From the NCBI GenBank assembly GCA_905331295.1, contig CAJNYD010000221.1, positions 1-46,598 on the forward strand: a stretch of DNA of 46,598 nucleotides, in the 5' to 3' direction. Shown one piece after another: positions 9,824-37,573 of this stretch; the first letter of the stretch is position 1; each line of letters opens with the position of its first letter. This stretch comes from Rotaria socialis (taxonomy: Eukaryota). A program made the translations under genes and the position numbers. The notes beneath the pieces are model-generated. The model did not search any database, had not been told where the DNA came from, and saw only the letters and a program-made list of their open reading frames with translations.

Positions 9824-12800
9824 ATGAGCAATGCTAAGACGGCAGCTGCTATATGTAAAAAAGAATGGAATGCTAAAGCATCGCGAAGTGCTCGAAAAAC
9901 CATCAATCCTATTCGCCGAATTGTTGATCGATGTAAATTGCTGCCAAATCCAGGCAAGGCGTTGATCACATTGTCCATTGGTAAGATTGTAGCTATCATT
10001 GACTGGCTCAAGAGGACGGGGAACCTATTCATCACATTTCGGCTCAATACGAAACTCATAGTGGATTCACCTGAGACTGTCAGCCTATGCACAGCTCACT
10101 GATAGTAATCATCCTTCAAAAGTTCAGCAAAATAGGCTTAAATTTTTCCTTACTTCGAAGCTCTATAAAATTGCATTTTCAGATGTGATCGTGATGAGCT
10201 TGAGTGAGGTTGTGGTAACGGGTGTGACTGTGACTGTGGCTACTAGTATTATAAGTGCGAAATAAAACACCCACACTCTGGGCTGCACATTTTCTGATAA
10301 TTTCAGGGGAATCCGCTGTAGCTTTTGTATTGAACCGAGATGCGGTAAAAACGTCACTCGTCACTTATATTTAGGTGATCCCACCTGCTACGGCAACATG
10401 CTTCCACCGATTGAGGCAACTGAAGCGGTTAATGAAGCCTTCGCAAAACCGACGTCTCATGGGTACTTGCCATCTTGCGGTAAATACTGTTTTATACTTA
10501 AAAATTTATTGAAAAAGCTATTTATTGTATTTATGTAAGGGATGGAAGAGGCAAGAGAAGCTATTGCGAAATTATGGTCACGAAATGGGCATGTTCTTGA
10601 CACAAAAGTAAGATAACTCTTCTAAGTACGTTTTCTCTGACAGAAGTAAATGCTAATTTGAAGGATATTATCCTTACAAGTGGTTGCTCGCATGCGCTCG
10701 AAATGTGTATCAATGGTGTGGCCGACCCTGGTGACAATATTCTTATACCGCAGCCCGGATTTTCGGTATACATTACATTGTGTGAGTCGCTCCATATAGA
10801 ACCACGATATTACAAATTAAAAGTGAGCATTGTATTTTATATCATATTATTTTCCCATTACCGTGTGTTTTCTGCAGCCTGAACAAAATTGGGAACTCGA
10901 CTTGGATGATTTAGAAACTGCCATCAACAGTAAAACGAAAGCTGTTCTTGTTAACAACCCATCGAATCCATGTGGTAAGTAAATGTTTAGTTGTATTGGA
11001 ATGCTCAATTTAATGAACTTTTAGGAGCTGTGTACAGTGCAGAACATCTAAAACAAATCATTGATATCTGCGAAAAGCATCGTCTAATTATCATTGCTGA
11101 CGAGATATATGCAGATATGGTAAACTCATGTGATATAAATTTTTCAGAAAAGTTCGAAAAAAGCATAGGTGTTTCCTGGTAACGAATTTCACTTCATGGG
11201 TGTTTTGTCGCAGAAGGTCCCAATTCTTTCATGTGGTGGGTTAGCTAAACGCTACATTTGCCCTGGTTGGCGGATCGGCTGGATTGCTATGTATGATCGT
11301 ATGAATATATTGAAAGGTATTGATACTCAGAGTTTTAAGATCCAGGTCTTGACTATAGTATAATTTAGAATCAATTCAACCAGGTTTGCTGGATTTATCC
11401 AGTCGTATTCTCGGCCCGAATTCCGTGATGCAAGCAGCTTTACCTAAAATTGTGGCGAATACGCCTCAAAAATACTTTGATAATATCATCAGTCAGATCC
11501 AAGTAAAGATTAAAATCACGCTTTCAACTATAATATGTTTTAATTACTACACAGAATAACGCTGAAATTTCTTATAAAGTTTTATCAACAGCACCAGGTC
11601 TGAAACCAATTATGCCTCAAGGTGCAATGTATATGCTGGTAAGAATTCATTTCAAAATCGTCGAGCCTACGTTCAGTAACAGGAAGATCTGCTTTGAAAA
11701 CTGTAATACAACGTTTTTCAAACCTCAAAGTTTATCGCTCTTGTAGACATTTTAAAGTGATAATTACCGACTGCTAAAAGAACTAGCATTAGTGGAATTA
11801 ATCTAAATCATGCAAAGTTATGCTTTTGAGAGCCTATTCTTAAAACAAGTATTCTAATGTTTTTGGACTAGAAATCGTATCGGTTATCATCTACAAGGAA
11901 ATTCTTATAGGCAATCTATCAATTTAAAACCATCTGTGCTGGCCAACAAAATATCCTGGGAATTTCTGAAGTTAGCTTTGCCTAGAGAAAGAAATTTCCG
12001 GTTGATTTCGAAAATAACTAACAATATGACAGCAAATTAGAACTAGAAAACGTAGACTCTCGAGTACTTTCCGCCATTACCTGGAAATTACGAAAAATTC
12101 TTTATTAATATTGCATAGGTTTAAGAATAAATAGGTATATAGATTTAAAGACCCCACCCTCAAGAATGAGAAGTACTTCTAGGAATTTTCGTATTTACCG
12201 TAATTTTATGGAATTACGGGAATAACTAGAAATTCTTCTCATTCTTGAGGATGGGGTCATTATATCTATGTACCTATTTATTCTTAAACCTATACGATAT
12301 TAATATAGAAATTGTAGGAATCTCCGTAATTTCTGAAATTTCCAGGAAATCACTTTATTTTGGTTTTCACTTATGGTGAATAACATTGCGGTAATCAAAA
12401 ACGTTTCTGATATTTTCTAAAACTTGAATGTTTCATCCCTGTAATTTCCGAAGTATGCATATTTAGCTAGGAAATTTTCTTTTTTGGAAATCTGTCCACT
12501 GCTGCACCAATTAAGGTTCTTTTAGTTATTCAACACGGCCAGTATTCTCATTTATTATTAGGGACGTTGTTAATCTTGTCAAGTTATATATAACGTCAAT
12601 TTATTTCTAATGTCTCGATTTTTTCGCTTACCTACCAAACAGGAGGTAAAGATCGATAGAAAAATCGGTAGCCATTGGAATATCACTCGAATAAAACACA
12701 ATTTCATATAATTTAATGACATTTCTTTCATAAGTATGGAAAGGACGTTACGGTTAGTCTATGATTACGTTACCATGTAGCTCGTGTCGGATTCTTTTTA

Positions 12801-15800
12801 ATATCAACCATTTTTTTCGAGTAGCTTGCGATGAGTGTCAGTTATCGATGTCGAAGGTTCGGCATAGTATAGAGAATTGTCGGGTGCTGCTAAGGTGTGT
12901 AGCATTCATTGTGTTCGAGTAGGTTTCGCACGGATATTTGCAGATGAGCATTCTTTTGTTACCATCTTCTACCACATCTCTAAATAGACTATGGTGAAAT
13001 TGCACCACAATGTAGCCGGATAAGTGATGTTTACCCTGTATAATTCTTCGATTTTTTCACGCTGGCTCCGCAGTCGTACTTCAGTAGAAATTTTCTGAAA
13101 TATGGAAATCTTGTGGATAATACATATTAAAATGGTCTACATTTTCGTGTAATCTGTAAATAAATTTCTACAAAAATCTCTAGAAAAAGGAGCACAACAG
13201 AAAAATATTCATCTTTAAATATCTCGCAAAGTTTTTCTAAACTCAATTAATATTACATTGGTAGAAGTTCCAAATATTTTTCTATTTTATGGCGAAAACC
13301 TGAGCGTGATAGTTAGAAGCTATCGAAAGTTATTTAGAAAATGATGGTTGGTATGTAAAACCTATCTGACACTAGTAATAGAACTGTTACCAATTACCAG
13401 GTAATGGAAAAGAACATTTACCACGGATCAGTATTAAGCAACGGAAAATTTGCAAGTTTATGAAAAGAATAATATTTTACGGTAATAATGAATTTAGATG
13501 AAGTATAACCAAAGATTTTCGGATTCAAGGAATCCGAATCCAAAATTGGTTTCCCAGAATTTCACTCATTCATTTTACGATAGGTAACTAACATTTCAGA
13601 GAATCAATTAAATTTTATAAAGAAAAATCAAGTTGAGGTATTGTGAGAAACTGATTACATATGTAGCTTCTTTAAAGAGTTACTTTTTGATTCAATATTT
13701 TCTATTTAAAACAACATCATGACTACTGTAAATTCTCATACGTATAGGACGTAAAGGGTAACCATTTAGGGGGGGACGACAGTTCAGTTTTAGTTCCGAT
13801 CAAAAGAACTGTTCAGCCAGTTTCTTAGATCTGACCTGAATCGTTCGAACGAACCTTTAGATTTAATCTGAACTGTTCAAACAGATCATAGTAGATCCCA
13901 AAAGAGACGCATATATCGATATAGACATAATCACAGTATAGATCATAACAGTTATTAGATGTGTTCTGATCTGTTCAAACACTTCTTTCGCTCATTTAAT
14001 CAGAATTTGGACCTGAGAACTATTATACCAAGTAGTGTCACTGATGCTATGTGATAGAGTGAAGAAAAATAGATCTTCAAGGGACTCGAACTCACACCTT
14101 CCGTGGTCCAAGTAGATGTCATAACCATTTGGACTAGAAAAGCATCTTTAATCTTTGTTTGGCGTCAGAGTGACCTATCACTGACGCTAGCTGCTACTCA
14201 AAGAGACACAGCTATTTATACGGTAATAACTATTCAAAACAAAACAAAAGCTTATTAATACAGTCCTAACGGGACTGAATGTGAAGCTCAAATGCATTGT
14301 TTACAGTGACAGCTAATTCAGAATACATTTGGTGAAAATCTGTCGTAAAAATCTACCATGTTTTAAGACCTGTAATTAGAGCACTACTTACCCACGTCGA
14401 TCGTAAACGGCCGTTTACGATGACCTAAGCGACAGTTTAAGATGACGTAGCTGGTGGTATACGTCGAATTTAAGATCGTATATGCGCCGTATATTGTCAC
14501 ACCGTATAAGGCGTATCACTGTTCACTGCAAAAAAATAAACGTAGAATAATGAACGCTAAAGGGTTTATTGAAGTGCAAAGTATAATAAGCCCTTTTAAC
14601 CGTATGGGAAATCTTCATAAACCCTTGTAAAGAGTTTATTAGAGGGCTTCATAAAATTAGAAACCCTTTCAAATACCCTTCTAACGGGTTTCGGGAAACT
14701 TAATTTTAGCCAAAACTCATGTTCAATTTGAAGAGTCATTGAAGCAAATCTAATTGAGAAAAGTAGAAAAAATTAATTCAAATTTAAAAATATTTACTAC
14801 TTTTCAAGCTGTCCGATCAATACTAAAAGATACAAATTATTAGTTTAATTCAAATAATACTTACTGTTCATTTTGTTATTGCGACCAGTGATGCGATCGA
14901 CTCGTGTTTTTTTCGAACCGAACCGATCGATTTTTTAAAAATAAGGAATCGAACCGAATAAAATTTAAATGTCTTACATATCTCAGCAACATCAAAATAT
15001 TATTAGAGTATTTGCGTTTCTCTTAAAATGCAATTTTGAGTAANTCAATTAACTAATAAAACTCCTCCATGAAAATAAGAGACTGATACTTTAATATTTA
15101 CTTTAATGATATACGCGACGTTTATTTTAGTGTATATTTTTTTTTTTATTCATTTATTTATATATGGCGCAGGAGAAATTAATATTCAAGAGATTTTGAA
15201 TTTTTCCTAGTTAAAGTTACAATTTTAATTTCACTTAGTACAACTTAAAATTTCAATTTTGACTACATATTTTTTAGTAAAAACGAATGTTTAAATTTTT
15301 CCTGTAGGAGAATGCTAAATATTCCTGACTGAATAGTATCAATTTCATATTCCAATCTTTCTTGTAAGAATAATTAAAATATGTGTTACTTTCGGCAGAA
15401 TCGGTAGAAGACCAGAATAAAATAAAAATGTACACTAAAATAAACGTCGCGTATATCATTAAAGTAAATATTAAAGTATCAGTCTCTTATTTTCATGGAG
15501 GAGTTTTATTAGTTAATTGATAAACAAATTGAAGGCTTATGTTCCGAATTTTAAGAGAAGTTTTCTATAAAACTGCCATTATATGATAGTATAATATTGG
15601 CTCTACGAGATGACTAGGGAGATTCTCAGCTCAGATTCTGTGTGAATAAAAATTGGTGATCATAATGTTGAATATGAAGTAGAATATTATCATCTTGCTT
15701 TTACATACGAAAATTTGTATACAAAGCTCAATAAATGTCACGAAAGAATTGGTCATCACGAACTAGATAAGATTTGTAAAAAAATATGTAGTGTGAACAT

Positions 15801-18800
15801 TTAGTAGTGTGGTACTATATATCATTCATCGAAAAAGAAAATATGCTCAAGTGTGTACTTTACTCTTTGTATTTTTGACACATAAAAAGAATAGAGTTAA
15901 TATTAAATTTTCAGGAAAATTTCAAATTCTCCTGAATTTTAATTTCTCCTGCGATACATTCATATATATGAGTGAATTGCAACTTTTTGGTACGATTGAA
16001 TTTTAGCTGTATTTTTTGAATAACGTTTTTTCGCTTCAGCCGATTTGGACAATTTTTTTACAGGATAGTAGTCCCTAAGTGTCCCACTTCCATACAAAAT
16101 TTCAGCCCTCTATCTCATACTATAGGTGACTTATAAAAGATACATTGCAAAAAAAACGTCATTTTTTGATGGCATGTATCAGAAAAGAAAATAATTTTAG
16201 TATAACAAATTAAGAAGGAATAAACATGAATATCAAAGTTTGTTCATCGTTCATCATTGTATTAAAATATGTTATTGGTTTAAATTTTATTCATTCTCCA
16301 TTCACTTGTCTAACGTTCATATATTTAGACAGACACATATATTTTTGTGTAGAGCGACACAAATACTACTATAGCTTCTGCTGTGCTAGAGCTAGCGGCT
16401 TTCAGGCTATATGAAAAGAAAGAGGACTTTTCAAGTAACAAACTACAGAGAAAAGGTTTCTTTTTATCAATTGTATTTCTCATAAAAAATAGCAGAACTT
16501 CTGGAAAAAAGATCGTTATACTCACTTTGTAGAACGACATTTTGATAATTGTGCATTTTATAACTCCCGAAGAGTTACCTCATTTTGGCTGAAAGTTTTA
16601 CAGAAGATACAAAACAAAAAGTTCTACAAGTTATCAAAATTTCACTCATTGATCATGTACTGTTCAAGAGAAATTTACAATATACTGGAAAATGTAGAGC
16701 GACAATTTTTAGAAAAGTATGTAGAATGACAATTTCACGGCTCTATAACTCCTCAACAACTCATGCGATTCAGCTAAATTTTTTAATCAATATATAAAGT
16801 GGCAAGATCTATCATTGATAAAAATTTCAGCCCTCAATCATCTTCTGTTCTGCAGAAATTTACATTATACTGAGAGATGTAGAATGACAATTTTTCGCGA
16901 ATATTTTCAGTACGGCTCATCCAAAAATATTTTTTTGACGTAGTTACGTGAGAAGCGATTATAGAGTATCATTTGGGGAAAAAATGATGACCGCAAAAGC
17001 GAAAATGTTCAAGATGTTGACGATTTTTACGAAAAAATTTATTCAGCATAAACATAAAAAAGCGCACTATTCTCTAGCTTCCATTTTTCTTGAAAAATTC
17101 GTACCTAGCACGAATAAGGACATGATCCCAGATAGAATCGTCAACATGGTTCTCCAGAAAAATTTTTTTTCGAAATTGCCGTACTCCCCTTCAGGGTTTC
17201 AGGTGGATAGAAAAACAAATTTCATTTTTCGTGACAACTACATCGTCCATTCCATCTATGATCATGTACTGATTTCTGCTATATATAAATTTTGAACTTT
17301 CAAAGTGTGGTTGTTTTGGCATGTAGTCACCCACAAGTAGAAAAAATCATACATTTATAAAAGGGCCATATCTCCGTTAATAATCGATCAATTGTTGGGA
17401 AATTTGTTTTGTGTACTACTGGCATTGATTGTAATAAAATGCACTACTGAAAAATTGTATGGGTTCACTTTCATCTGTTCGCGTGAATTGTACCAAAGAG
17501 TTGCAATTCACTCATATATATTATTGTTATTAACATCTATTTTTAGGGTGTGGGCGTAGTGTTCCTATTAGAAACACTGGATGGATCTATGTTTTACTTG
17601 TTTTATTTCTCTAATAAGCAGAAAAAATCTATTGGTTGAAAATAAATAAATCGGTTTAAAAGACTTCGAACCGAACCGAACCGGACCGAAAAAGTTTTAA
17701 ACCGAACCGATCGCATCACTGATTGCGACTAACCTAAATAAAAGAAATTAAAAAGATGATTTGTTTTAAAATAATAATTACTTAGGATTTTGAATTTTAT
17801 ATTCAGCCAAAAAAATAAAAATATGATAATTATTTATGAAAAATTATACTAACGTTCGAATTCAAAGTTGAATTTCGATCTAAAAGAATAAAAATAACAA
17901 TTATTGAAAGAAAAAGTATACTTACTCGCGGTTTTGAATTTAAAATTGAACTAAAAGATTAAGAACAATAATTTTAATAAAAAATATTATTTTTACCGAT
18001 GATTTTCAATTTTCTCTGCTATCCAACTAAAAGACTGAAATAAAACAATAAGTATATATAAAAATTAATGCTTGGATTTGATCGGATTGCTTCGAAAAAT
18101 CTTTTTTGTAAAAAATTAAAATAACCCCCCCCCCCCCCTCAGATCTGAGTTGTCCCTTAAAAAGGTCCGTTTGAGCTGAAATTTTCAGGAATGACTAGTC
18201 TTTACTAGAAACAGTCGTGATAAAAATTTCAGCTCGATATATAGAACTGAACCGAAAATATGGCTGATTTACATACGAATTATGGCCACCAGGAAAATCC
18301 CTAAGGCTCTGCTAGTAGCAGAGCTATACAAGTCGCGCTTGTTTTAAATTAAACCCAGCGCCAATACGCAACTTTTGTCCGAACAGAATTTAAAAATTTG
18401 CTTTAGTTCGTGTTTTACAAGCATTTTACTCGGATAGGGGTCAAAATTTGGCTAAAAATGGTCACCTGTCGGTATGGAATCCGACTTTTCTCAGATCAGG
18501 AATCAAATATAAAAAATCTGATCGGACACGATTTTACTTACACTTCAAGCTTCAAAATAAAATAAAAATGACCTTAATATCTTAAAACGCTTGAAACTAG
18601 TTACAGTTTTTCTGACAAAAAATCTAGTTTTGAGAAAAACGATAAATAAGTTTAAGAATCATTTTTTATTGTTTAAACTTAAAAAAATGCGGAGAAAAGA
18701 TCTATTTGTTATATTTTTACACTGAACCTTTTCGGTGATGTTATGAATGATATCGACTCGCTCCATCTATAAATGATCTTTGCTATTAGCTCTATTCTTT

Positions 18801-19642
18801 CAACTGGCGCGCCTATACTTATGAAAAATGAGAGTTTTTAACCTATTAAACATAATCAAAATTGCTTTTAACCCTTTAAGTTGAATGGAATCGATAGAGC
18901 TATCATTTCTGCACATATTCATTGTATTTCCTCTTTCATAAACTGATTTCTTTAATTACAAAATAGCGATCTGTGAAGCAAGGTAAACACAAATCGTCGT
19001 CTGGTCGAGTACTGCCACTTATTTTATTCAGAGAACATTTTTATGGAAAACAAACCTCATATTCGTGATCAGCGTACTAAATAAGTTACGTCTAGATCAA
19101 ATTCTGGGAAAAAAAGAAAAACAAAATTTCATTTTCGGGAGGGTGACAAATAGGGCTATGACAATTCTCAGATCTAAGTTCCGATCAAATGAGCGAAAAA
19201 ACTGTTCAAACAGATCTTTAGATCTGATCTGATCTGTTCGAACAGTTCCGATCAGATCATGTGAACTGTATGAACAGTTCTTTTGAACGGAACTAGAACT
19301 GAACTGTCATACCCCTAGTGACGAAGGCACAATGATTTTACAAAAAAAAGAATAATTTTTTCCAAAACAAAGTTCACCGTTTTGTTTAGAATTTTATACT
19401 GATTCCAACTATGTAACTATTTTTTCAGAAAATAGTTCGGTCAAAAAATGACTTCTCTTTTCTCGAAAAACAAAACAGTACGGTTTAGTATTTTTTCGAT
19501 AAATCCCTTAAAATCGAACCTTTTTTAAAAAACCCATATATATTCTGAAAGAGGAGAATTTGAGTCATCTACCCATGATAAAAACTCAAACTTTAATTTT
19601 TTCGGAAAAATCGACTTTTTTAAAGGGGGGGGGGCTTAAAAG

Positions 19643-19690
<48 letters not shown>

Positions 19691-21953
19691 AAAAGCGGTT
19701 GATTCACAAAAATAATAATTGCATAGAATTTTTTAACCTACTAATGAAATTCTTCAAGATTTATGAATAAATACTAACATTTTTTTTTAAGAAGCCTCAC
19801 CTACATAAAACAAAGTTTCATTTGGTTTTTTAAGCTGATCTAATTAATAGAGAATGATAATCTTTTAATGTGAGATTACAAACTATTGCAACATAGAGAG
19901 AACTAAAGTTATACAGTCTGTTTTTCATTAATCTGTGTTTCTATTGTAAGATTTCCTATGTAATCAAAAAATATTTGATGAATAGTGTCATCAACCAGAA
20001 AAGTCAACATCATTTTGATATATCTGTATAACGTGTCCAATTTGAATTTTTTAGTGCAAAAAACAATTGTATGGAAGAGTGCAATAATAAACTCTTCACC
20101 GTAGATTCATAAACCCTTCCCCTTCAATTCTGGTGCAATGAACCGTTTTGGAGTTTCGGACAAAAACATAAACCCTTTAAGGGTTTATGAAATTTTTTTT
20201 CTAGTACTAGGGTTTATTATTCTACGCTTTTCTTACAGTGTGGTCGTTTACATATAAAATCCAGCCGTTACGGGTCTGTAAAATACAGCTGATACAGTCA
20301 GTGACTGTGGCGTATACCGCTGTAAAAAGGTCGTAACCCATCGTATCCTGTCAAACAACACAAGCGGAGTTTCAAAAACATTTCAGTAAATCATAATTTA
20401 TATTCAACACATATTGTGCTGCGCCAAACAAGAAAAATCACCTTATTAAGGACGCTTCGGAGAGCACCGTTGATGCAAGCGATCAATCGAGAGAAGTAAG
20501 AAATACCTATTCCTTGATTTCTGCTGTCCCATGACAAGAAGCTGGAAAAATCTGAAAAATGATACAAGCATCAAACAAGTACTATAGGAAAATGAAGAAC
20601 ATAAAAATATAGAAAAAAAATATAGAAAAGGACAACGGAGAAAAGAAAAATATCGATAGAAGAAACGTCGAAATTAATCATCTAGAAGAAAAATATTGAA
20701 TAGAAAGCAGGGTTTCGGTGTGGGTGTGGCTTCGAGTATAATAAGTGCGAAACAAGACACCCAGACCTACATAAAAGCAGACAAATGCTGAACGCCACTA
20801 TGCAACTGTCAATATTACACCAGTAGTTCATGCAACCAAATTTTATAGTTCCTCGTGAGCCAGGGCGTAAATGTGGCGATACTGAATAGAAAATGTACAC
20901 AAACCTATGCTTTGCTATATTACTGGATGGTTTCATTGCGATAGAAGAGACCTACTTGGGAATGAGTTTTAAAGTTATGAGATGAGCAAGGAGGATACCT
21001 ATGTCCGAGAAAGATATTTATTTCTATCGCGAAGACTAAAGATCTTTCAAGATACATTTAGATATCGAATCTTGAGATAATATCCAGTATATCGAAAATC
21101 CGAGTGCTTGAGATGTCTGCCACTCGAATGGGTGAGGGTGCAGAAATTGAATATATGACTGCCGTCAATATTACAATTAAAGATATATAATTTTACTTGG
21201 TGAGCCGTATGTTCATGTAAAACAGAGGACGAATATGGTGAACATGAACGCGGCGAACAACAAAGTCTACCATCATAGTTTCTGTTAGTGATAAGAATAC
21301 TAATTAATTTATTGCTGATAGTATCATTCGAATGAGTTTTCGTCCAGTCATTATGTTGTTTGTCTATGGTTTCTAGTAATCTTCGCAAATGATTTAGTGA
21401 TATCTCAGTGGATACCGAAAAAACGGTATGCCAAAAGTATGCAGATCATTTCACTGTTCACTTGAATGTGGTAGGAGGGAAGCAACTATGTGGTTCCATG
21501 ATAGAATTTCGATGTCACTTCGTATATGTATACTAAGCAGTTTTCACTATGTTCTTGTAGGTTGGACTTGATCCTACTGCCTACGACGATGTGGAAAATG
21601 ACACAGTATTTTTTACAAAGCTGTTCAATGAACAGTCGGTCTCTTGTTTACCAGCATCGGTGAGTGAGCACATGTCAATTACTATATTTAATTATTATTT
21701 AAAATGTATTTTGGGGCGTGAAAAGGTATTTGGTATGCCTAACTATTTCCGTTTGGTTCTGACGACGCCATACGATAAAACGCAAGAAGCGTGCGAGCGC
21801 ATCGTCGAATTCTGCCATGAACACAAGCAAATTACGAATCCAGATCAATTGCGTGCATCCAAAGACATTACACGATGGGAAGTGCGAGCTGAAGGTCTCG
21901 CACAATCAGAAGAGTCAATTCTACCATTTTATACAAATTCGAAAAGATATTAA
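9824..21953 (+). CDS. TAT: Tyrosine aminotransferase (PLP-dependent class I/II), 11 exons, 457 aa
   Basis: Exons 9824-9980, 10375-10479, 10540-10607, 10664-10822, 10878-10974, 11025-11119, 11169-11316, 11369-11502, 11555-11638, 21561-21659, 21726-21953. All introns are GT-AG and the exons sum to 1374 nt with no internal stop. Motifs [43 protein letters not shown] (PLP lysine), PGWRIGW, PQGAMY and EQSVSCLP are typical of animal TAT. Confidence 0.95.
12070..12350. mobile_element. Foldback MITE-like inverted repeat in TAT intron 9
   Basis: Imperfect ~70-bp arms ~12104-12175 vs ~12233-12306 (ataggtttaagaataaataggta...ctcaagaatgagaag), with ggaaattacg-type motifs around them. Confidence 0.6.
13767..14030. 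mobile_element. Degenerate copy of the TAGGGG hAT MITE family
   Basis: Shares agatcccaaaagagacgc.tatatcgatatagacat and gaactgttc/gatc motifs with 1638-1819; termini decayed. Confidence 0.7.
14071..14143 (-). pseudogene. tRNA-like sequence (tRNA pseudogene or tRNA-derived SINE head)
   Basis: Minus strand tagtccaaatggttatgac...gtgagttcgagtccc gives Pol III A-box- and B-box-like motifs at tRNA-like spacing; the acceptor and anticodon stems pair poorly. Confidence 0.45.
14886..17721. mobile_element. Non-autonomous hAT element
   Basis: TIR CAGTGATGCGATCG; perfect 8-bp TSD attgcgac (14878-14885, 17722-17729); subterminal AACCG repeats. Confidence 0.88.
15970..17513. mobile_element. Non-autonomous TIR element, GAG termini with ATAT flanks (Sola2-like)
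   Basis: TIR gagtgaattgcaact(t/c)tttggtac(g/a)att at both ends, flanked by atat on each side; superfamily inferred from the GRG terminus and 4-bp TSD. Confidence 0.7.
18080..19700. mobile_element. Inverted paralog of the repeat at 1-1320, with G/C homopolymer tracts near both ends
   Basis: Reverse-complement collinearity with 1-1320; interrupted by a MITE at 19151-19317; exact termini uncertain. Confidence 0.7.
19151..19317. mobile_element. TAGGG hAT MITE inserted in the 18080-19700 repeat
   Basis: TIR tagggctatgacaattc / gaactgtcataccccta; TSD gtgacaaa / gtgacgaa; the paralog has an empty site at ~281-300. Confidence 0.88.
20950..21390 (-). pseudogene. Possible degraded Penelope-like reverse transcriptase remnant
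   Basis: ORF segment [10 protein letters not shown]...[20 protein letters not shown] loosely resembles the PLE RT C-terminal region (LL...N..HPNIK.T.....FLD..I....G.L); highly decayed. Confidence 0.3.
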
Positions 21954-22045: not shown

Positions 22046-23362
22046 CAGTGAACGTCAAAATTATCCAACCACTTAATAAAAATGTTTTCTTCAATATTTC
22101 AGAGTAGAAATAAGCTAGAGACTTGCGACTTTCACCATAATGTAACCCATCATCTCTAGAATATGTTCGGTTAGACTTTAGGGGTCCACCCTGACAAAAG
22201 TTAATTTTTTACAGAAAAAAGGAAATGGATTTTTTTACTATGGGAAGATGTTCCCAATTTGCCTCTATCCAAATAAAAATAAGGTTTTAAAAAACATCCA
22301 GGTTAAACAACACTTTCGAAATCATTTCTTCAAACCTAGTACCACAGTTTTAGGCGGACAGGTATTTTTTATTTCGGGGGTTTCTCAAAACATGATTTTC
22401 TAACAGTAAAGCTGAAATAATTCTGGCTTGGCTCAAGCTTTGCCTGATGTTTTTATTTCATTTAAAAGGTCTCAACGAGACCTAACTTTGCATCGGACGG
22501 ATTTTCGATAATAGATTCCGGGACTAAAAAAAGTTCGATTTAGTGCGCGTTTTGTACCTAATTTGACAGTCATATCATATAAAATGATTATAAAAAAAGG
22601 AATACAGGCGAATTTCAAAATTCCGTCCGATGAAACGTTGCATATGGAGGCTTGCTTTAATTTGAAATCCACCCGACTTCGATAACTTTCACAGCCATGA
22701 AGTTATTTTGATTCTCGTGAAGTGGTCACAGATAGCGCCACTACCTAACAAAAATAATAATAAAAAAACATGAACTTTCACCCGTCAAAATGATCCAATC
22801 AGATATAATTTTTTTTCGAAATCAATGCTAATTATTGTTTATTCCTATTGAACTTGTTGCTAACGTCATCTGCGTTATGTATATTCGTTAGTGTGTTTGA
22901 AATAACTAGATACGTTGCCAAGAAAAAGTTTTCATAATGGCTCCTAAGAAGAAGAAGAAGAAGGAATATTACAATGATTTACGTGAAGTTGTTATTAAAC
23001 ATTATTTGAATGGCGATTCTGAGAGCGAAATAGCTCAGAAAACATTAATTTCACGTGATTCTGTTCATTACATGGTTGAAAAGTACAAATCGACTAAATG
23101 CATTGGTAATATAATTGGTCGAGGTCGAAAACGGAAAACAACAGCTCATACGGATCGTGTTATTCAACGCAAAATCAAAGTTGATCGTCGAAAATCAGCC
23201 TCAACTATCAAAGCTGAATTCAATATTGCTATTTCTGAAACAACAATTAGTCGAAGAGTTCATGAAATAGGCCTTTACGGTCGTGTTGCTCGCAAAGAGA
23301 CATATGCCAACAAAATCAATCATTGGAAATGTCCCGAGTATGCTCGAACATATCGCGAAAAG
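22046..23362 (+). mobile_element. 3'-truncated Tc1/mariner element
   Basis: TA + CAGTG left terminus (cagtgaacgtcaaaattatccaacc) followed by a Tc1 transposase N-terminus; no matching right TIR seen. Confidence 0.75.
22937..23362 (+). pseudogene. Tc1-family transposase, N-terminal paired-HTH part only (no DDE domain)
   Basis: EYYNDLREVVIKHYLNG...GRGRKRKTT...IKVDRRKSA...SETTISRRVHEIGLYGRVARK, a GRPR-like linker plus HTH_Tnp_Tc3_2-like region; the ORF then runs into unrelated sequence to 23494. Confidence 0.85.
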
Positions 23363-23585
23363 CAAGGAGGAAAACTCATTCGGGCATTCCTAGCCATTCC
23401 TAGCGATTCTTATACATTCCGATCCATTCCTACACTGAAAAAAAGGTATCATACGAAACTAAAAAAGGGTTTCGAGATTCGAAACGAATTCTGAACCATT
23501 TTTTAGTTTCGTACGAAAACTTTTTCTTGGCAACGTATCTAGTTATTTCAAACACACTAACGAATATACATAACGCAGATGACGN

Positions 23586-28981: not shown

Positions 28982-29320
28982 TAGGGGTTGCACTTCAACT
29001 TTAAATTGACCGTAAAGTGCAGAGTTTAAAGTTGTTTAAAGTCACGTTTTAATGCTTTTTTTGGCGTTTTATCTGTTGCAGAGAGTCGCATAAGCATAAT
29101 TGAATACGTGAGTACAGTAAAATGTATCAAAAAGAAGCGTTTAAAGGCAACTTCAAACAAGTTTAAACTTTAAACTTTACGGTTAAAGTAAAGTTAAAGT
29201 GCCTACAGGTGTAAGCCGTCAATCGATGTTTGCTGAAGCCGACGGCTGACCGCCGGCGTTTTTGCTAGAGCCGACGTATTTCCCAGCTGACGGCTTACAC
29301 CTCTAAAAGTGCCACCCCTA
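28982..29320. mobile_element. hAT MITE nested in the 28843-29900 element
   Basis: TIR taggggt(t/g)gcactt; perfect 8-bp TSD gcgctaat (28974-28981, 29321-29328). Confidence 0.88.
29204..29305. mobile_element. 102-bp hAT MITE nested at the right end of the 28982-29320 MITE
   Basis: TIR ta(c/g)aggtgtaagccgtca; perfect 8-bp TSD aaagtgcc (29196-29203, 29306-29313). Confidence 0.88.
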
Positions 29321-29399
29321 GCGCTAATAATCAGATGATGTATAGAATAATGATATTTAAAAATGAACATAGAAGATATTCAGAAAATACCAAACCTGT

Positions 29400-29600
29400 T
29401 ACCTTTCTGGAAGCATTATCAGCAGAAGTTCCCATATTTATCATTACTTGCTCTTCATCTATTTTCGATACCTGTAACCTCCGCAGCTTTAGAAAGATTT
29501 TTTCGACTGTTGGACTAGCTGTAACAGAACGTCGTTCTACTTTGGATCCTCAAACTTTAAATGATATTCTCTTTGTGATATCCATTCAAAAGATTTTTGA
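29400..29600 (+). pseudogene. hAT transposase C-terminal dimerisation domain remnant
   Basis: Frameshifted LFSIPVTSAALERFF/STVGLAVTERRSTLDPQTLNDILFV matches the hATC signature SIPATSA.SER.FS..G......R..L.P. Confidence 0.85.
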
Positions 29601-30252
29601 ACAAAAACAAACTTTTTTCTTAAGGTTTTGCAATGCTGCCTCTGATGTATTTTTTTTTTGTATGAAAACTTCGATAAGTAAATGCTTAATCTAGTCATAT
29701 TAAATTAATTAAACTGGCTTTCTTCATTCTCAACATTAATTGCATGTTTCTATTCTATCCTCGTAATGGTATTAGCATAAAAAACATTGCCAGGCAGGCC
29801 AGGCCAAACAAATTAGTTGACAGGCACAGGCAGGCTTGAAATGCAAAGGCCTGTCACGTACCGGCCAGGCCTACAAAAACACGGCCTAGTTGATGCTCTG
29901 ATACACATAGTTAATTCATACGATTCATGGAAATACTTAGTTTTTCCTTCAATAAAGCAAACCACTAGTCTGTTATTAAAACAAAAATTTGCGAAATCGA
30001 AAATCGTCTTATTCTACGTATATACGAGCAATACTTATTCATTTCGTATGCGATATTCTATTTTCTAGATACTCGCCTTGTACTTTGCACCGCATTTCGC
30101 ATTCTAGCAAAACTTGAATATTATCTAGTTTCTTTTATTTGTTCTATTCTTCTAGTTAACAATACAATACACAATCAAAACAAAAAAAATGACCTCAACA
30201 TCGGCAATAAAAACTTTTTCATTATGATCATGTGATTGGATAGGTTTTNTCA

Positions 30253-30545: not shown

Positions 30546-31298
30546 GATTCATCTCCGATAATTATTCATACAACTGCTCATCATTTATCGAATCGATTAT
30601 CAACAAATGCCGATCAATCTTATATTAAAGGAAATCGATTACAATTTTTTTTTGCTTCACCATCCGATTCAATTATTTTCGATGATGATAATACAAATGA
30701 AACAAAATTTCAACAAACTGAACCTGATGCTATATTATCGTCTCTATCATCGTATTGGTATACTTATATAACAAAACATGCGCATTTAAGCTTAAGAGAC
30801 TGCCCCCTCCCCCTCAGGAATCGTTTTTCATTATTCGTGGACCGATTTGTCTGAAATTTTGAGGCAATGCATGTGTTGTATTAAATCAATTTCTTGTAAA
30901 ATTTCGGCTCATAAATGTTTTTCTTTAAAGAGTTATTCACAAATTAGTCCCCAAAATGATGGTGCTCGTAAGGTACCGATTTCTCGAACTGCCAAAGACG
31001 TAGAGAGCTACTTTTTTTTAAATGAAAGAAGAAACCTATGTCCAGAAATATATGTGGCAGTTGAGTTCAGAATTCAGTTGAGTTTGGAATATAATAGTTT
31101 GTAAGAAATTTATAGTGTTAATTATAGGTATAAATGATATGAAACTGAAAAATGAAAGTTTTTATTTCTGCAAATCATTGAAATATTGCTCCAAATGAGT
31201 TCTTATTCAGATGTAGGTAGAAAAATGTTTTTGTACAAAATAATAAAAATCGATTTCTTATTGGTTTTTTCTTGAGCAGTATTGTGGTACAAATAGAA

Positions 31299-31500
31299 AC
31301 ATTGAATAATTGTTGTATATGAATTCAGAATATTTTTTTTCTGATTTTCGTATTGTATTTATTTTAAAACTGAGGGACATGGGGACATTGAATAATTGTT
31401 GTATATGAATTCAGAATATTTTTTTTCTAATTTTCGTATTGTATTTATTTTAAAACTGAGGGACATGGGGACATTGAATAATTGTTGCATATGAACTAAA
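31299..31500. repeat. Tandem repeat, 86-bp unit, about 2.3 copies
   Basis: acattgaataattgttg starts at 31299, 31385 and 31471. Confidence 0.9.
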
Positions 31501-32961
31501 ACTTATTTTTTTAATGATTTTGTTTTCTTTTTTTTTAAATATAGAATTTCGAGAAATTAACTTATGTATTGATCAGTGGTACCTTAAATCTGTTAGTCGA
31601 TAGCCTTATGGTTATTTAGATAATTTTCTAAAAAACGAATATTGGTTTGTTATTGTATTAATACAGTTTACGTCGAATTATTAATTCTTCGGGAGTTTTC
31701 TTAACATGAATTCAGGAATGTTTATTTGGGACGTTGATAGAATGTTGAAAAAATAGTTTAATAAAGTAAGTCAATGTGTCTTCAAAACAGAACAGTTTCA
31801 AAAACCATCGTAACTTCATATAAAAATTGAATGTATGAAGGAGTCTTTTGTATAGAGTTTAAATCAGGGATATATTAAATGTTTGTGAAATTTTCTAGTA
31901 TAAGGGATCAGTGTTATTAGTTGTTTTTATTTTAAACATATCTTTAAGCATCATTGAAATTATCCTTTTAGCGCAATGTAGGATATCGTGTAAAGTAAAG
32001 TTCATAAGATTATTCATGTAGGGGTTCTTAGTTTCTTTCTATTGATTTTTCAATGAAGTTTGACTCTAGAATTTTCGTAAAAATGGTTTTTCGCAAGTTC
32101 TATATGATCCTGTTTCTTTGAAAAATATTGCGTCTTCATCTTGTGAATTATTAAAAAGTGCAGCTAGTAATTAAAAGAATACTTTTTGTGGTTATTAAGG
32201 ATTGTAAATTGATCAAGTTTTTTATTCGAAAAACAAAATTAGGTTATGAACTTGTGGAATAGATCGTGAATAGAAATAGAAATAGAAATTCACTAATGTT
32301 TTATCAATTTTTTTATTGTTTTGATCTCTTAATTCTGGAGATCAAACCGCATTTTTATGTGGAAATTTTATGAATATGTTATGTCTTTGTGAGTAGCGAG
32401 TAATCTGTGCCGTGCTTGATCGTAAAAAACAGTTGTATTCGTTCAAGCAGGAAATGCAGTGATTTTTTACTATCCCTTTTTAAATAGGCAGTTTCATGAA
32501 TTTTGCTCGCGAGTAATTTATTGGTGTGGAATTAAGTATAAAAAAGTTATGAATATTTATTTTTATTATTGTTTTTAGTGTGAGCCTGTGCAGATTATAG
32601 GATGAAAGAAACAGTACACTAATTGAATCATTTGATATGTGCGTCATCTTGCGGAGATGTGCGATCTTTTTATTTACTAGTGGTGACATATATGATTCAT
32701 ATATGAAGAATGAAATCATAGTTATCATTCAGTTTATATTTTAGCGTTCATTACTTCATTTTAATTTGATGGTTTGAAAACAAATTTTTTGGTACAATTG
32801 TTTATTAATTGAACTGTTCCACTATTATACAGATAGATTGTTAGAAATATGCAGATAACAAAAAAAAAAGAAAGTATGCATCTTGATGATTGAAAATGTT
32901 TCAAACATTTCGTTGAAAAAAAAATCATATAGTCCGAGTTTTGATTTGAAAGTTTTTATCA

Positions 32962-35900
32962 TCATTTGCGTTTTATTTTCTTCTTTTTAATTTCAATTGT
33001 TTTCGTTCTTCGTTTAGATTTTTGTGCACGAGCGGTATTACTGCTTAATGGTTCAGCATTTGATGATGCTGGATTAGAAATTGATGAATCTAAGAATATA
33101 AATGAAAATTAAGTTATATTCATTATTGAAATCATGTATTGAGAAGAAATAGTCCTTATGTCACATTTAGTAGTATGTTTGAAAATGTAACTTCATATGA
33201 TTCTGTTAAATAATAAGAAACTGTTGTTTCTCACGTTTTAGTGAATGTGACACAAAGAAGGTCAATTACCGTTAGTTTCAAAAGAAGGTCGAGCGATACT
33301 TGTCGAAGCGATATTCGATATATTATTTTGAAATCCGGTTAGAATATTTGTTACATTATCAAAATTATGAAGTGTCGTAGTTGAAACATGTCGTTCAGAA
33401 GTGTTCATGGTTGTTTTATTGTTAGTAGGAATAGTGATATTTTCTAATGGCATGATGATATCAGATGAACCAATAAATTGATTTTTCTGAGGATCTAATT
33501 TAGTATGATTTAATGATTCAGGAGATATTATATGACTGAATGAAGCTAAAATATGTCAGGAATATTTTTTTAATATTATATATCTATTAATTAATTCTTA
33601 CTATGCATGTTAGAATGGATCTTATCCGAGTTATTGTGGAGTTTATTAATGTATTTTAGAATAGAATCGTTAGTTGTCAGCATTGCTAGAAATAAATAAT
33701 TAGCATTGTATTGATTAATTATTTGGATCATACTTTCGCTGATATCTTCAAATTGATTAGTAGTCACCTGAACTGGTGTTGATTGGTTGTTGAATGTTAC
33801 GTTTTCAACGTTCGATGATAGCAAATTAGTTGTTAATGTGGAATTATTATTAAATTGTGTTTCAGCTTAAATGTAAATTTTTATTCATTTTTTTTATATT
33901 ATAGTTCAATATGTAATACTTAGCGTCTGCAGATTTGAATGCAATATTTCGATATGAGTTGGAGAACCTGAGATATTAACTGTTTGGCTTACGGAAGATA
34001 TTATTGATGGTGTGCGTGATTGAATTAATGTATTTGATAATTCAGTCTTAGGATTTTTCGACGCGTTTTGAATTGTTGGTTTTATGCCTAGTACAAAAGA
34101 ACGAGTGTATTAGTTTCCAAGTGTTTTTTTTTGTAATATAGTACATTTGTTTATACTAATTGAAGAATTGTTAGTGGTCGTTTCGATTGCTTGTGTTTCA
34201 ACATTAAGAGTCAGCTGTTCAGTATTAGAATTAATCGTAGTAGTATTAGAATCTAAATTTAATTGCTTTTAATATAGATTCTATCCAGAAAAAGGGATAA
34301 AATATATTGAGTAATCAAGACTTTGCCATGTGTCTTAAATGTTCATATAGCTAATAAATAGGAAAGTATCCTAGAGTATATTTAGTGTTTAGAAGTTAGT
34401 GTGAGACTAGTATCATAATTTTTATGTAGAAGTCATAAAGTAATTCCATTGTTCATTTGTATTATGAAAAGTTCTTATATCTGAAAGGTTACTTGATGTT
34501 TGTAAGTGAAATACATACTATTAAGAAATCGTTCGGGATATTTTTGTTTTAAGTTATTGAATAATGATTTATTATCAGATTGCAACAATACTTGCATAGA
34601 ATCGTTTGTTAGTATTTGTTTTTGCTTAATAGTACTATTATTCAAGTTTGTCATATAAGTTTTTAGATCTGATTTTGAGTCATTAAGTATTTGCTCAACA
34701 ATTTGTCGTTTTACAGGATTATTTAGTATGTTTGTCGATGGATAGCATTTCATATATACAGATGTATGTGATGTAGTTTGTATGTATGCTAAATGAGATC
34801 GGATTGAGATGAAAATATGTCAAAATAACAGTTTTATTAAAGTTATATTATTGATGGAAAAGTATCTGACTATAGCTATAATTGATTCTATAACTTACAC
34901 CCTTTTCGTATAAATTCATAATTTATTAATTCGTCGAGAGCTGTGTTGACCAGATCAGTTGGAAAACGTCGAAGTACTCCCATTGGTCCTGTTAAGTCAC
35001 GTTTCAGAAAAAACAATTGATTTATTTCGAATATATATTCACGAATTGTATTCAATGATGTTTGAACTATAAAGCGGTGAATTTATCATACAAATAATGA
35101 TAAAAGAATTTACTAGGCAATATCTGATTTCGAGTTGATAATTCGTTTGGAAGTAGTGGACTAGTATTATAAAGTTCGATGAACATTTTTCTTAGATAGT
35201 TGCAGAATAAATATCCAGCTAGTCGTGTACTAGATGATTGTATTTCCAAAACTAAGTTGGCAGATGGATACTTATTTTCAATTAATTGTGTCGTATTGCG
35301 AATAAAATTCAAACTGGTATCATCATATAAGAGTTGGTTTTGATCTTTCAAAATTCTATTTAATATAGAGATATTGTTTATTAACAAGCGAATGACATCA
35401 AAAGAATTATAATCAGAATGAAATCAGCTAGTTTGGGATGTTAATGTTGGCAGATTTACTTTAAATTGAATCAATGAGATTAGTGTTTCATGTTCTTTTT
35501 TTAAGGTGAAGATACTTTCAATTTCTCAAGTATTGGTTATCAAGTAGTTTTATTTTGAGAATTGTATAAATAGAATGATAAATGACTTTTTTTTGATTGA
35601 TTAGCACCAAAGGTATGATGTATTATAAAAATATTTAGTCGAATAGTTATAACTTACTGTAGTATTTCCAGTGAAATTTTTACAATTTGAGAAATGCCAG
35701 CTATTTTACATAAAATTTCAGCGGCTTTGCCAATTCGTGATGCATAATTAATGTCATCTGAATCATCATGTTGAGCTAATTCTTGATATTGGCGTATTTT
35801 ATTGTTGAATTTTTTTGTGCCATGTCGACTTAAAGTAAATATACGATCACCTAATAAACGACAGACAATTAATATTTGTGTTAGACTCGGCTGATTTTGA

Positions 35901-37573
35901 TTCATATTTTTCGCCGTTGTAGTTCCATATTCATCGTCGCTGATATCTTCTTCACTATCGTCATTGTCGTCATTATTGTCGTTATGATAATCTAGTGTTT
36001 GCGATTTAATACTATTTAAATCGTTTTTCTTCGGTATCGTGTAATGTAGAAACCTATTATTTTTAAAGAAATTAATGCATATAATTAATATGAATTGAAA
36101 GAAATTATATAAGTCAGAAATTCATTAGTGAGAATAAACTGAATTTTCTATTATGAATGATCGTTATTCACCGACTACTATTTCAATGTGTGAAGATAAT
36201 TTAAAAACTGTGATGCATTAAAAAAGCATTTAATTCATTATAATTGTTACATGAATCAGAAGCAATGAAATTTATGAAATCACGAAGCATTATGTAGAAT
36301 AATAAAAGTAAAAGTAATCGGTAGTTTTCATCGATTTGTTTACCGATGAGAAATCTAATATTTTCAGTCATGGTTACGGGTTTTTTAGTTGGGATCGTTG
36401 ATTTATAAAAATCATTCGCTAACCCTATTGATTTTTGGTCAACTGCGAATCCTAATACTCAGAAATAGTAGTAGTTAGAAATCGGATAAGTTGTTAGAAA
36501 TGAAAAAAAAGAATTCATTTTATTTCGTATTTTGGGATAAAATAAAATAAAATTATGAACTTCTATAGTGCGATTAATAAATAAAATAATCAAGTTTGGT
36601 ATAAGGACGGACATATTAAATTGTTTTAAGTAGAAATGCCTTTAACCTTTTTCAAAAGCAAGAATTATTCTAAGAATTGTTTCGTTAGAAGATATATTAT
36701 GAAATGTAAGGATAGATACATTTAAAAGAAGATTCTATTTTATCTTTTTAACAGCTGTTTTTTAGCTTAGGCAGTCTTATATGGTTGCTAAACAATGCAT
36801 AGTTTGAGTTACGTATCTGGTTTTCTTAGAAAATCTTATTACCGTTCTGAAAAACCATCTGTTTGATTTCCTTGTACATAATAGTCGATTAGACGATTCC
36901 ATAATCGACCAGTTGTCGCTCCAAGAAAAGACAAATGAGAGCTGACTTCAAGATGGTACGTCATAGTGTCCTTTGTTGTTGGTACAGTGCCGAAGAACTT
37001 GCATCCAGCTATTCTATCAGCAGCAGTACTATCGGAGAATGGTGAGTAAAAACCAAGAGTTAACAATGGTTTTTCCGCTTCATCTGACATTATAAATGCA
37101 TTGCTTTTAGCTAATTTAAGTGTTAATGATGCTATTGTGAAATCATCGATGATGCCGTAATTTTCGTTTGGAATGTTTAAGGCCTTCATAGTGTTGATTA
37201 TGGATCTTTTAACAGGTCCAATAATTTTAGTTTTACCAGAACCTAACGAAAGAAACACTGTTAAGAATTTTTAATTTTTTTATTTACCTGACGGGCCAAT
37301 TAGTAGTACAAAAATATTCAAATTAGTTGTTTGATTCGATATAGTAACTGTAGAGTTAGTTGCTAAATAGCCTACACTTGCAAATAATGATAATAGAGTA
37401 CCAATTGGATCAGTATCATTTATTGATTTAAGATTATTTAAAAGTTCACGTAGTAATAAAAACGATTCATCAAGTAAATCATCTATATTGATAGATATTT
37501 TTCGTGAATTTTGCAAGTTACGTCTCCAGATTAAATTTACAATTGATTGTTGATTTTTTAAAATTTTTGACAT
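32962..37573 (-). CDS. DUF3987/YfjI-like (MCM-related AAA+) P-loop ATPase, putative helicase, with a long S/T/N-rich tail; 11 exons, 857 aa
   Basis: Exons 37573-37288, 37242-36843, 36053-35658, 35355-35114, 35066-34899, 34788-34519, 34252-34145, 34087-33920, 33865-33734, 33545-33270, 33089-32962 (2574 nt, GT-AG, no stops). Walker A LIGPSGSGKT is split by intron 1. Also Walker B FIMSDE, LSFLGATT (sensor-1-like), DGFSERFL (Arg-finger-like) and a basic C-terminus KSKRRTKTIEIKKKKIKRK. The 3' exons are less certain. Confidence 0.75.

Follow-up and report, generated by a model that had tools for sequence, protein, structure and literature searches.

Genes and ends of the element

A 46,598-nt stretch of the genome of the bdelloid rotifer Rotaria socialis (contig CAJNYD010000221.1 of assembly GCA_905331295.1, forward strand; hereafter, the window) contains a spliced gene for a DUF3987/MCM-like AAA+ protein, here called the helicase (minus strand, 37573..32962). 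Together with genes for an RPA70-like single-strand-binding protein (SSB) and a retroviral-type DDE integrase, likewise on the minus strand, it lies inside a 14,306-bp element (31053..45358) bounded by terminal inverted repeats (TIRs). Papers are cited by PubMed Central number.

The helicase gene comprises 12 exons and 11 GT-AG introns, and its 885 codons include zero internal stops; the exon model was fitted to a database gene model (P0004), from which it differs at 6 residues. The predicted protein consists of an ATPase domain (residues ~35-421), a winged-helix-like region (~430-590), a disordered tail of which 46% is serine, threonine or asparagine (residues 590-860), and a basic C-terminus (lysine and arginine at 50% of the final 26 residues). 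The Walker A motif GPSG|SGKT (37297-37229) is split by the 45-nt intron 1; it is accompanied by the Walker B motif IMSDE (37093-37079), LSFLGATT (36934-36911), DGFSER|FL divided by intron 2 (36859-36047), and an acidic stretch (36007-35954; 32% aspartate and glutamate over residues 230-270). Location, introns, reading frame and all of these motifs agree with a preliminary description of the locus made from its letters alone, which had also pointed to DLVNTALDELINYEFIRKG (encoded at 34956-34900) as part of a possible winged helix; that segment is present, and its region matches winged-helix chains only moderately (Z ~6). In an alignment of 29 rows reaching down to 15-25% identity, the residues G98 and K99 of Walker A (21 of the 21 rows that cover them), E150 of Walker B (23/23) and R229 (23/23) are invariant. 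R229 is presumably the arginine finger, going by the motif order of MCM.

Transcript support for the helicase is thin and limited to intron 10 (33545>33602), confirmed by one spliced contig (depth 3.8) of run X20, which is presumed from its spliced contigs to be RNA; exons 1-9 have no RNA cover listed, and no sequencing run recorded as RNA contains this stretch. The preliminary description had named transcripts assigning the 3' exons to another gene as grounds for doubt: none does so, at an RNA cover too thin to exclude it. An Rfam search gave zero matches.

The SSB gene (39842..41781, minus strand) has 9 exons encoding 307 residues, with a basic N-terminus and two OB folds; its model is identical to the database model P0176, and all 8 of its GT-AG junctions are present in one X20 contig that extends to 39393. 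The SSB profile matches RPA70 OB-A/B chains (E 1e-18), covering OB-A/B and not the full subunit, and TIGR00617 (E 2e-25, under the full-length cutoff). The product is predicted from these matches to be a tandem OB-A/OB-B, RPA70-like single-strand-binding protein. A database model (P0003) that fuses SSB and helicase was rejected: in the spliced contig the SSB frame closes with a stop codon, and because this contig ends at 39393, the two are separate genes.

The integrase gene (42723..44795, minus strand) encodes ~550 residues in 7 predicted exons, identified by Pfam rve together with a splice model; a single exon matches rve at E 9e-7 (29.6 bits, under the cutoff of 32.6). Stop-free GT-AG splicing is possible, with the middle junctions unfixed (6 of 48 solutions kept). 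By eye, the spliced model has an H2C2 finger, D160-D219-E256 with a 36-residue D-E spacer, and a cysteine-rich tail, and is without YPYY and GPY/F motifs, as the definition of Ginger2 requires. The protein is presumably similar to SCAND3/KRBA2.

The left TIR (31053..31090, plus strand, starting TGTGG) and the right TIR (45321..45358, minus strand, starting TGTTA) are each 38 bp long and identical at 32 of 38 positions. Their ungapped score is 25, whereas none of 138 random pairs scores above 15; a gap-lenient control on this AT-rich DNA (observed 66, shuffled maximum 91) was discarded in favor of the ungapped one. The element termini are TGT...ACA. TATA stands beside the left end with A before it (31049..31052, plus strand) and beside the right end with T after it (45359..45362, plus strand), and the left and right flanks may come from different insertions. 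Ginger2 is defined by TGTNR ends, 4-bp duplications and the target RTATAY (PMC2836005); because the TGT...ACA ends, both of the form TGTNR, and the TATA target fit this definition, the element is read as Ginger2-type, its TIRs being shorter than the ~50-180 bp of the definition.

Just inside the left end lies an 86-bp tandem repeat (31299..31539, minus strand, 2.8 copies by TRF), two units of which contain a doubled ATGTCCC and which may be an origin or a protein-binding site; a 27-bp tandem repeat (45224..45296, 2.7 copies by TRF) lies just inside the right end. The element differs in composition (28% GC, GC skew +0.21) from the DNA to its left (34%, -0.01), and its interior (31458-45253) is recovered as a single 13,796-nt contig in each of runs X6, X1 and X7. 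The preliminary description had proposed an element-borne helicase, to which the TIRs, integrase and SSB gene now give substance; it did not mention the element ends, the RPA-like gene or the integrase, which are the main point of context.

Family and fold of the helicase

Nineteen of the 20 matches in a first protein search were named Rotaria or Adineta, and a helicase profile run against 1.84 billion proteins gave 91 matches, 8 of the 10 weak ones checked being bdelloid; the profile is narrow, and animals other than bdelloids may also carry members. The cutoff of Pfam DUF3987 (PF13148, 27 bits) is reached by one of 20 close relatives (P0005, 33.2 bits) and exceeded by the distant members P0121, P0115, P0092, P0114 and P0117 (39-60 bits); individual helicase exons gave no DUF3987 match in the Pfam scan. 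In several distant members (P0114/P0080, P0121/P0110, P0111 and P0096/P0116) a second winged-helix-like copy replaces the serine-, threonine- and asparagine-rich tail, as seen by eye.

The AlphaFold (AF2) model is confident across most of residues 1-590 and disordered after. Among the best 50 matches of a VIA structure comparison with 48,161 chains, the top 11 are MCM (Z 12.6-15.6, root-mean-square deviation (rmsd) 4.5-5.3, 245-270 residues aligned), followed by BrxL, RavA, BchI, SCCmec Cch and ComM; neither an A32 packaging ATPase nor NACHT, the two families that the preliminary description had set beforehand as contrary outcomes, leads the comparison. Foldseek matches are phage proteins, several named DUF3987 or primase-helicase (E 4e-10 to 1e-8; phage DUF3987 at E 2e-9), with cellular MCM5 far behind (E 2e-5). 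In the Atlas, the first cluster is one of rotifer DUF3987, to which the protein itself may belong (0.97); clusters of bacterial DUF3987 follow (0.95). Sequence search of the PDB with the helicase profile returned P-loop noise only, and no relatives were found in viral contigs, prokaryote genomes or phage records, by searches that reach close relatives only.

On these fold matches, the phage DUF3987 proteins found by Foldseek and the distant members above the Pfam cutoff, the protein is assigned as DUF3987/MCM-like, as first proposed, and is, by predicted structure, closer to phage DUF3987 than to cellular MCM. A putative horizontal origin of the helicase is plausible.

Relatives and linkage to a PrimPol gene

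A metagenome scan yielded 9 loci, of which 6 extend for more than 1 kb upstream of the helicase (L003 = L004 and L001 = L008). A PrimPol gene lies directly upstream of the helicase in five of these six informative loci, which represent three independent loci; the preliminary description of a helicase lacking a primase partner therefore applies to the copy in the window and not to the family. The relatives' PrimPol matches human PrimPol (E 4e-7), and the catalytic motifs DxE, SxH and D are retained in it together with a UL52-like zinc finger (L004, P0224, P0128); its match to Herpes_UL52 (E 0.02) is below cutoff, and its predicted fold has a confidence (pLDDT 36) too low for structure search.

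One of these loci, L004, contains the integrase (inverted), SSB, PrimPol, helicase, ATGTCCC repeats and one TIR. This TIR is identical to the left TIR of the window at 31 of 38 positions (best of 20 shuffles, 25) and is flanked by CATA. The doubled ATGTCCC occurs three times in a ~100-bp repeat of L004, in the same place and orientation as in the window element, and if a 1.16-kb insert of L004 is disregarded, these AT-rich repeats lie inward of that end by ~300-500 bp in both elements. The ATGTCCC repeats are thus retained between the window and L004, although synonymous substitutions are nearly saturated. When 187 open reading frames (ORFs) were compared with L004, only the integrase, SSB and helicase frames matched, plus two short matches at E ~0.01; two L004 frames are outside the Pfam scan.

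Linkage recurs in database models that join parts of these genes: PrimPol and helicase in R. sordida (P0224), SSB and PrimPol in Rotaria sp. Silwood2 (P0128/P0204), integrase tail and SSB in R. magnacalcarata (P0201), and integrase tail and helicase in Didymodactylos (P0117, E 4e-14, the helicase part being ~21% identical). These are read as neighbouring genes rather than as true fusion proteins. In 6 of 10 SSB clusters a member stands on a contig as long as that of a helicase, with close accessions where shown (from listings, not DNA), and over seven linked pairs the SSB and helicase identities correlate with r 0.91, the best of 5040 permutations. The ratio of nonsynonymous to synonymous substitution rates (dN/dS) is lowest for the integrase (0.08), followed by the helicase (0.16), SSB (0.24) and PrimPol (0.27-0.30). 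Taken together, the gene comparisons show the four genes to travel together between related TIRs and to be under purifying selection.

Two further models join the helicase to other sequences, P0259 to downstream Argonaute exons and P0009 to a TTF-type domain; these are probably neighbours at other insertion sites.

Mobility and spread

Recent movement is suggested by near-identical ends that have different flanks in other sequencing runs. The left end as recovered in run X9, with 2 differences in 280 nt, joins another flank just before TATA, and the window flank is uncovered there; runs X6 and X10 show further flanks at the left end, and TATA is kept in X9, X6 and X10. The left flank in the window (30790-31049) is a high-copy repeat that hosts the insertion. 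No empty site was seen in the sequencing-run contigs. Contigs joining both ends hint weakly at short derivatives, their shorter sides being only 23-24 nt, and depth of cover (X1 interior 25.4 against junction 15.8; X6 85.6 against 35.8) hints at at least two identical copies and was not used as evidence.

R. magnacalcarata helicases occupy at least four places in a tree of 22 sequences, as expected of transposon families; the tree has long branches for distant members and was used only for this spread. Models named R. socialis and R. magnacalcarata share 98-99.7% identity within the window subfamily (window helicase and SSB against P0004, P0176-P0179, P0016/P0017 and P0198/P0127), whereas in another subfamily helicase and SSB each differ by 9% between these species. 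These values, for elements and not for host genes, hint at recent interspecies transfer of the window subfamily.

Comparison with known systems

The rotifer element resembles Ginger2/Tdd transposons in its TGTNR ends, H2C2 finger with DDE integrase, and TIRs, and probably in its 4-bp TATA in RTATAY (PMC2836005). It differs in length (14.3 kb, against 2.7-6.7 kb for the listed families), in the size of its TIRs (38 bp, against 45-297 bp), and in its possession of a helicase, an SSB and, in relatives, a PrimPol; neither helicase nor primase is mentioned in the available text of PMC2836005. A primase-polymerase directly upstream of an MCM-like helicase, with an integrase on the element, is found in bacterial AgaPP-AgaPH elements (PMC11724360) and SCCmec Cch (5dgk, Z 10.6) as in the rotifer family. 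In contrast to AgaPP-AgaPH, the rotifer element resides in an animal, with spliced genes, Ginger2 ends and an RPA70-like SSB; the primase of its relatives belongs with human PrimPol rather than with BT4734-like enzymes, and no PriCT domain precedes the ATPase.

Polinton/Maverick elements and Polinton-like viruses are likewise large TIR elements with a rve-type integrase and their own DNA synthesis genes, but in the rotifer element no protein-primed PolB, capsid or packaging ATPase is seen, the flanking repeat is 4 bp, not 6 bp, long, and introns are many. Helitrons and Helentrons with RPA are eukaryotic transposons that also combine a helicase with an RPA-like protein (PMC6431247); in them a rolling-circle Rep is fused to the helicase, whereas the rotifer element combines TIRs and a DDE integrase with a helicase of MCM-like type. 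With MCM2-7 and archaeal MCM the rotifer helicase shares the AAA+ fold (residues 35-421, with Z up to 15.6) and a C-terminal winged-helix-like region, but identity is ~13%, the N-terminal MCM domain is absent, the ATPase starting at ~35, and an acidic insert and long disordered tail are present.

A proposed model of replication and its alternatives

We favor, with a probability of roughly 0.6, a bdelloid family of Ginger2-type elements that carries a DDE integrase, an RPA70-like SSB, an MCM-like helicase and, mostly, a PrimPol, and that probably copies itself. DUF3987 proteins have been placed among the replicative helicases that are related to MCM and associated with primases (PMC4889955, PMC5862659), and a bacterial DUF3987 protein is an ATP-dependent 5'-3' helicase that binds its primase-polymerase and is located on an integrase-bearing element (PMC11724360); from this analogy we infer helicase activity and self-replication. 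The rotifer helicase would form a ring and unwind DNA at the expense of ATP, its winged-helix part possibly loading it at the subterminal ATGTCCC repeats; SSB would coat the single strands, PrimPol would lay primers, and host polymerases would probably complete the strand. The integrase would then cut the TGT...ACA ends and insert the copy at RTATAY sites. The window copy would represent a subfamily that lost PrimPol and borrows priming from PrimPol-bearing relatives or from the host.

Several observations weigh against this model. Protein and DNA profiles find no intact PrimPol in the window; a possible, uncertain remnant of its zinc finger occupies 43 nt in the expected place and strand (38451..38493, minus strand; nhmmer E 1.1 over the whole window, 0.026 over the intergenic stretch alone). 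Its local score with L008 is 37, the best shuffled score being 35, and there is no such match to L001, L002 or L004. Because run X10 has near-identical copies spanning the PrimPol-less interval, the loss is common to several copies, and since the loss of PrimPol left the frames of helicase, SSB and integrase intact, these three genes are useful without PrimPol in cis. The PrimPol-less form seems to be mobile, with PrimPol not needed in cis; the loss weakens the case for a strictly autonomous replicon and is the chief reason for limited confidence. In the informative relative L009, no PrimPol is present within 1,040 nt upstream of the helicase. The related end is seen in one relative only (L003/L004), at one end only and with the integrase reversed, and the pairs behind the correlation of SSB and helicase identities, being related to one another, are not independent. 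In X10, the repeat of the left flank runs on into sequence unlike the right flank of the window, leaving the target duplication unproven, and no free or replicating form of the element was seen. As regards the helicase itself, P0004 scores 22.8 bits (E 6e-5) on DUF3987, short of the Pfam cutoff, and residues 429-513 match winged-helix chains at Z 5.8-6.5 (9j89, rmsd 1.5 over 61 residues), under the trust level of the tool.

Ordinary cut-and-paste transposition, in which helicase, SSB and PrimPol would act after the event, filling the gap at the donor site from the sister or homologue or completing insertion junctions, with no self-copying intermediate, is an unlikely alternative with some weight. 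It would agree with the description of Ginger2 as cut-and-paste (PMC2836005), with the apparent mobility of the PrimPol-less subfamily, with the work of a related bacterial primase-polymerase in end joining and lesion bypass (PMC11724360) and, weakly, with the end-joining contigs, which suggest short derivatives moving with their ends alone; but published descriptions treat DUF3987 combined with a primase and a winged helix as a unit of replication (PMC4889955, PMC5862659), and a conserved repeated motif inside one end only resembles an origin.

It is quite improbable that helicase, SSB and PrimPol are passengers kept for a benefit to the host, such as DNA repair, and have no role in transposition. 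Scattered positions of the R. magnacalcarata helicases in the tree, codivergence of the genes with the integrase, and an integrase link that reaches Didymodactylos all speak against passengers, as does a host species that is probably non-desiccating (PMC7943196), even though the RPA70-like SSB is transcribed (X20 contig) and PrimPol resembles the eukaryotic enzyme.

An endogenous Polinton-like virus, with capsid genes lost or unrecognised, is about as improbable as passengers are, and if anything slightly more so. Such viruses possess TIRs, an rve integrase and a primase-helicase (PMC10120064), and giant-virus AEP proteins are among the nearest Atlas clusters of the relatives' PrimPol (score 0.89, a lead only). 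They are treated as intronless, however (PMC10120064), whereas the genes of the element are intron-rich; Polinton duplications are of 6 bp (PMC10045372); the unexplained intervals of the element (0.6-2.3 kb) contain no ORF longer than 82 codons, and no conserved extra ORF is shared with L004, the far end of which is outside its sequence; nor did viral contigs yield relatives, within the reach of that search. A domesticated host helicase with the integrase and repeats as chance neighbours, or an assembly chimera, is largely refuted, since the interior is one contig in three runs and L004, though saturated at synonymous sites, again has the gene set and a similar end, for all that the two junctions in the window may not share one empty site.

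Significance

Eukaryotic DNA transposons are grouped in a review as cut-and-paste DDE elements, rolling-circle elements, and self-synthesizing elements with a protein-primed PolB (PMC5718144), and the combination of DDE ends with a primase-helicase-SSB module fits none of these three. Another review considered that new types of element could arise from primase-based replication together with an integrase (PMC6431247). In a survey of 2016, MCM-like helicases were found among phages and viruses of archaea but not in eukaryotic viruses (PMC4889955), so that a spliced DUF3987 family was not to be expected in an animal element. Literature naming DUF3987 concerned, by listing, prokaryotes only or DNA viruses with DUF3987 in phages; no literature match paired Ginger2 with a primase; and the main text of a survey of bdelloid transposons mentions neither an integrase nor a helicase nor a primase (PMC7943196). 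None of the literature searched describes such an element, a scope outside which lie subscription journals and Repbase, where an entry is possible.

We give even odds to the wider proposal that the putatively self-copying Ginger2-type family is a new class of self-synthesizing animal transposon, uniting a Ginger2 integrase with a minimal replisome (PrimPol, phage-type MCM-like helicase and RPA-like SSB) and a subterminal origin. Such a class would be of an age to be shared by Rotaria, Adineta and Didymodactylos, would still be mobile, and may pass from one rotifer species to another. The family would be a new class only if self-replication is shown, and would then be the first self-synthesizing class to use a primase-polymerase instead of a protein-primed polymerase. 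Self-copying, if true, would offer a DNA transposon a way to persist in hosts without known sex.

Other features of the window and of L004

Several other features are present in the window to the left of the element. Two inverted blocks (4-1317 and 18092-19620), 82-94% complementary and ~17-19 kb apart, stand around aminotransferase-like exons and possibly represent another large element or a segmental inversion. The exons (9764-10882 and 21561-21953) are of a host aminotransferase of class I/II (Pfam match for 10601-10879), presumably tyrosine aminotransferase-like. A short Tc1/mariner element (22864-23584) has 73-nt TIRs and a truncated transposase ORF, and a hAT dimerisation-domain fragment (29269-29694) is weak (E 0.09). 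Nested inverted repeats at 15045-17527 include a fragment 28% identical to the integrase N-terminus (15646-15786) and a 26/38 match to the TIR at 15956, and are perhaps an old Ginger-like relic.

In L004, the 1.16-kb insert (15643-16800) between the ATGTCCC repeats and the element end has perfect 26-nt TIRs. Outside the element, L004 17031-18630 contains ORFs with Josephin domains and one that resembles a helicase C-terminus (UvrD_C_2, E 0.05), and is possibly Helitron-like.

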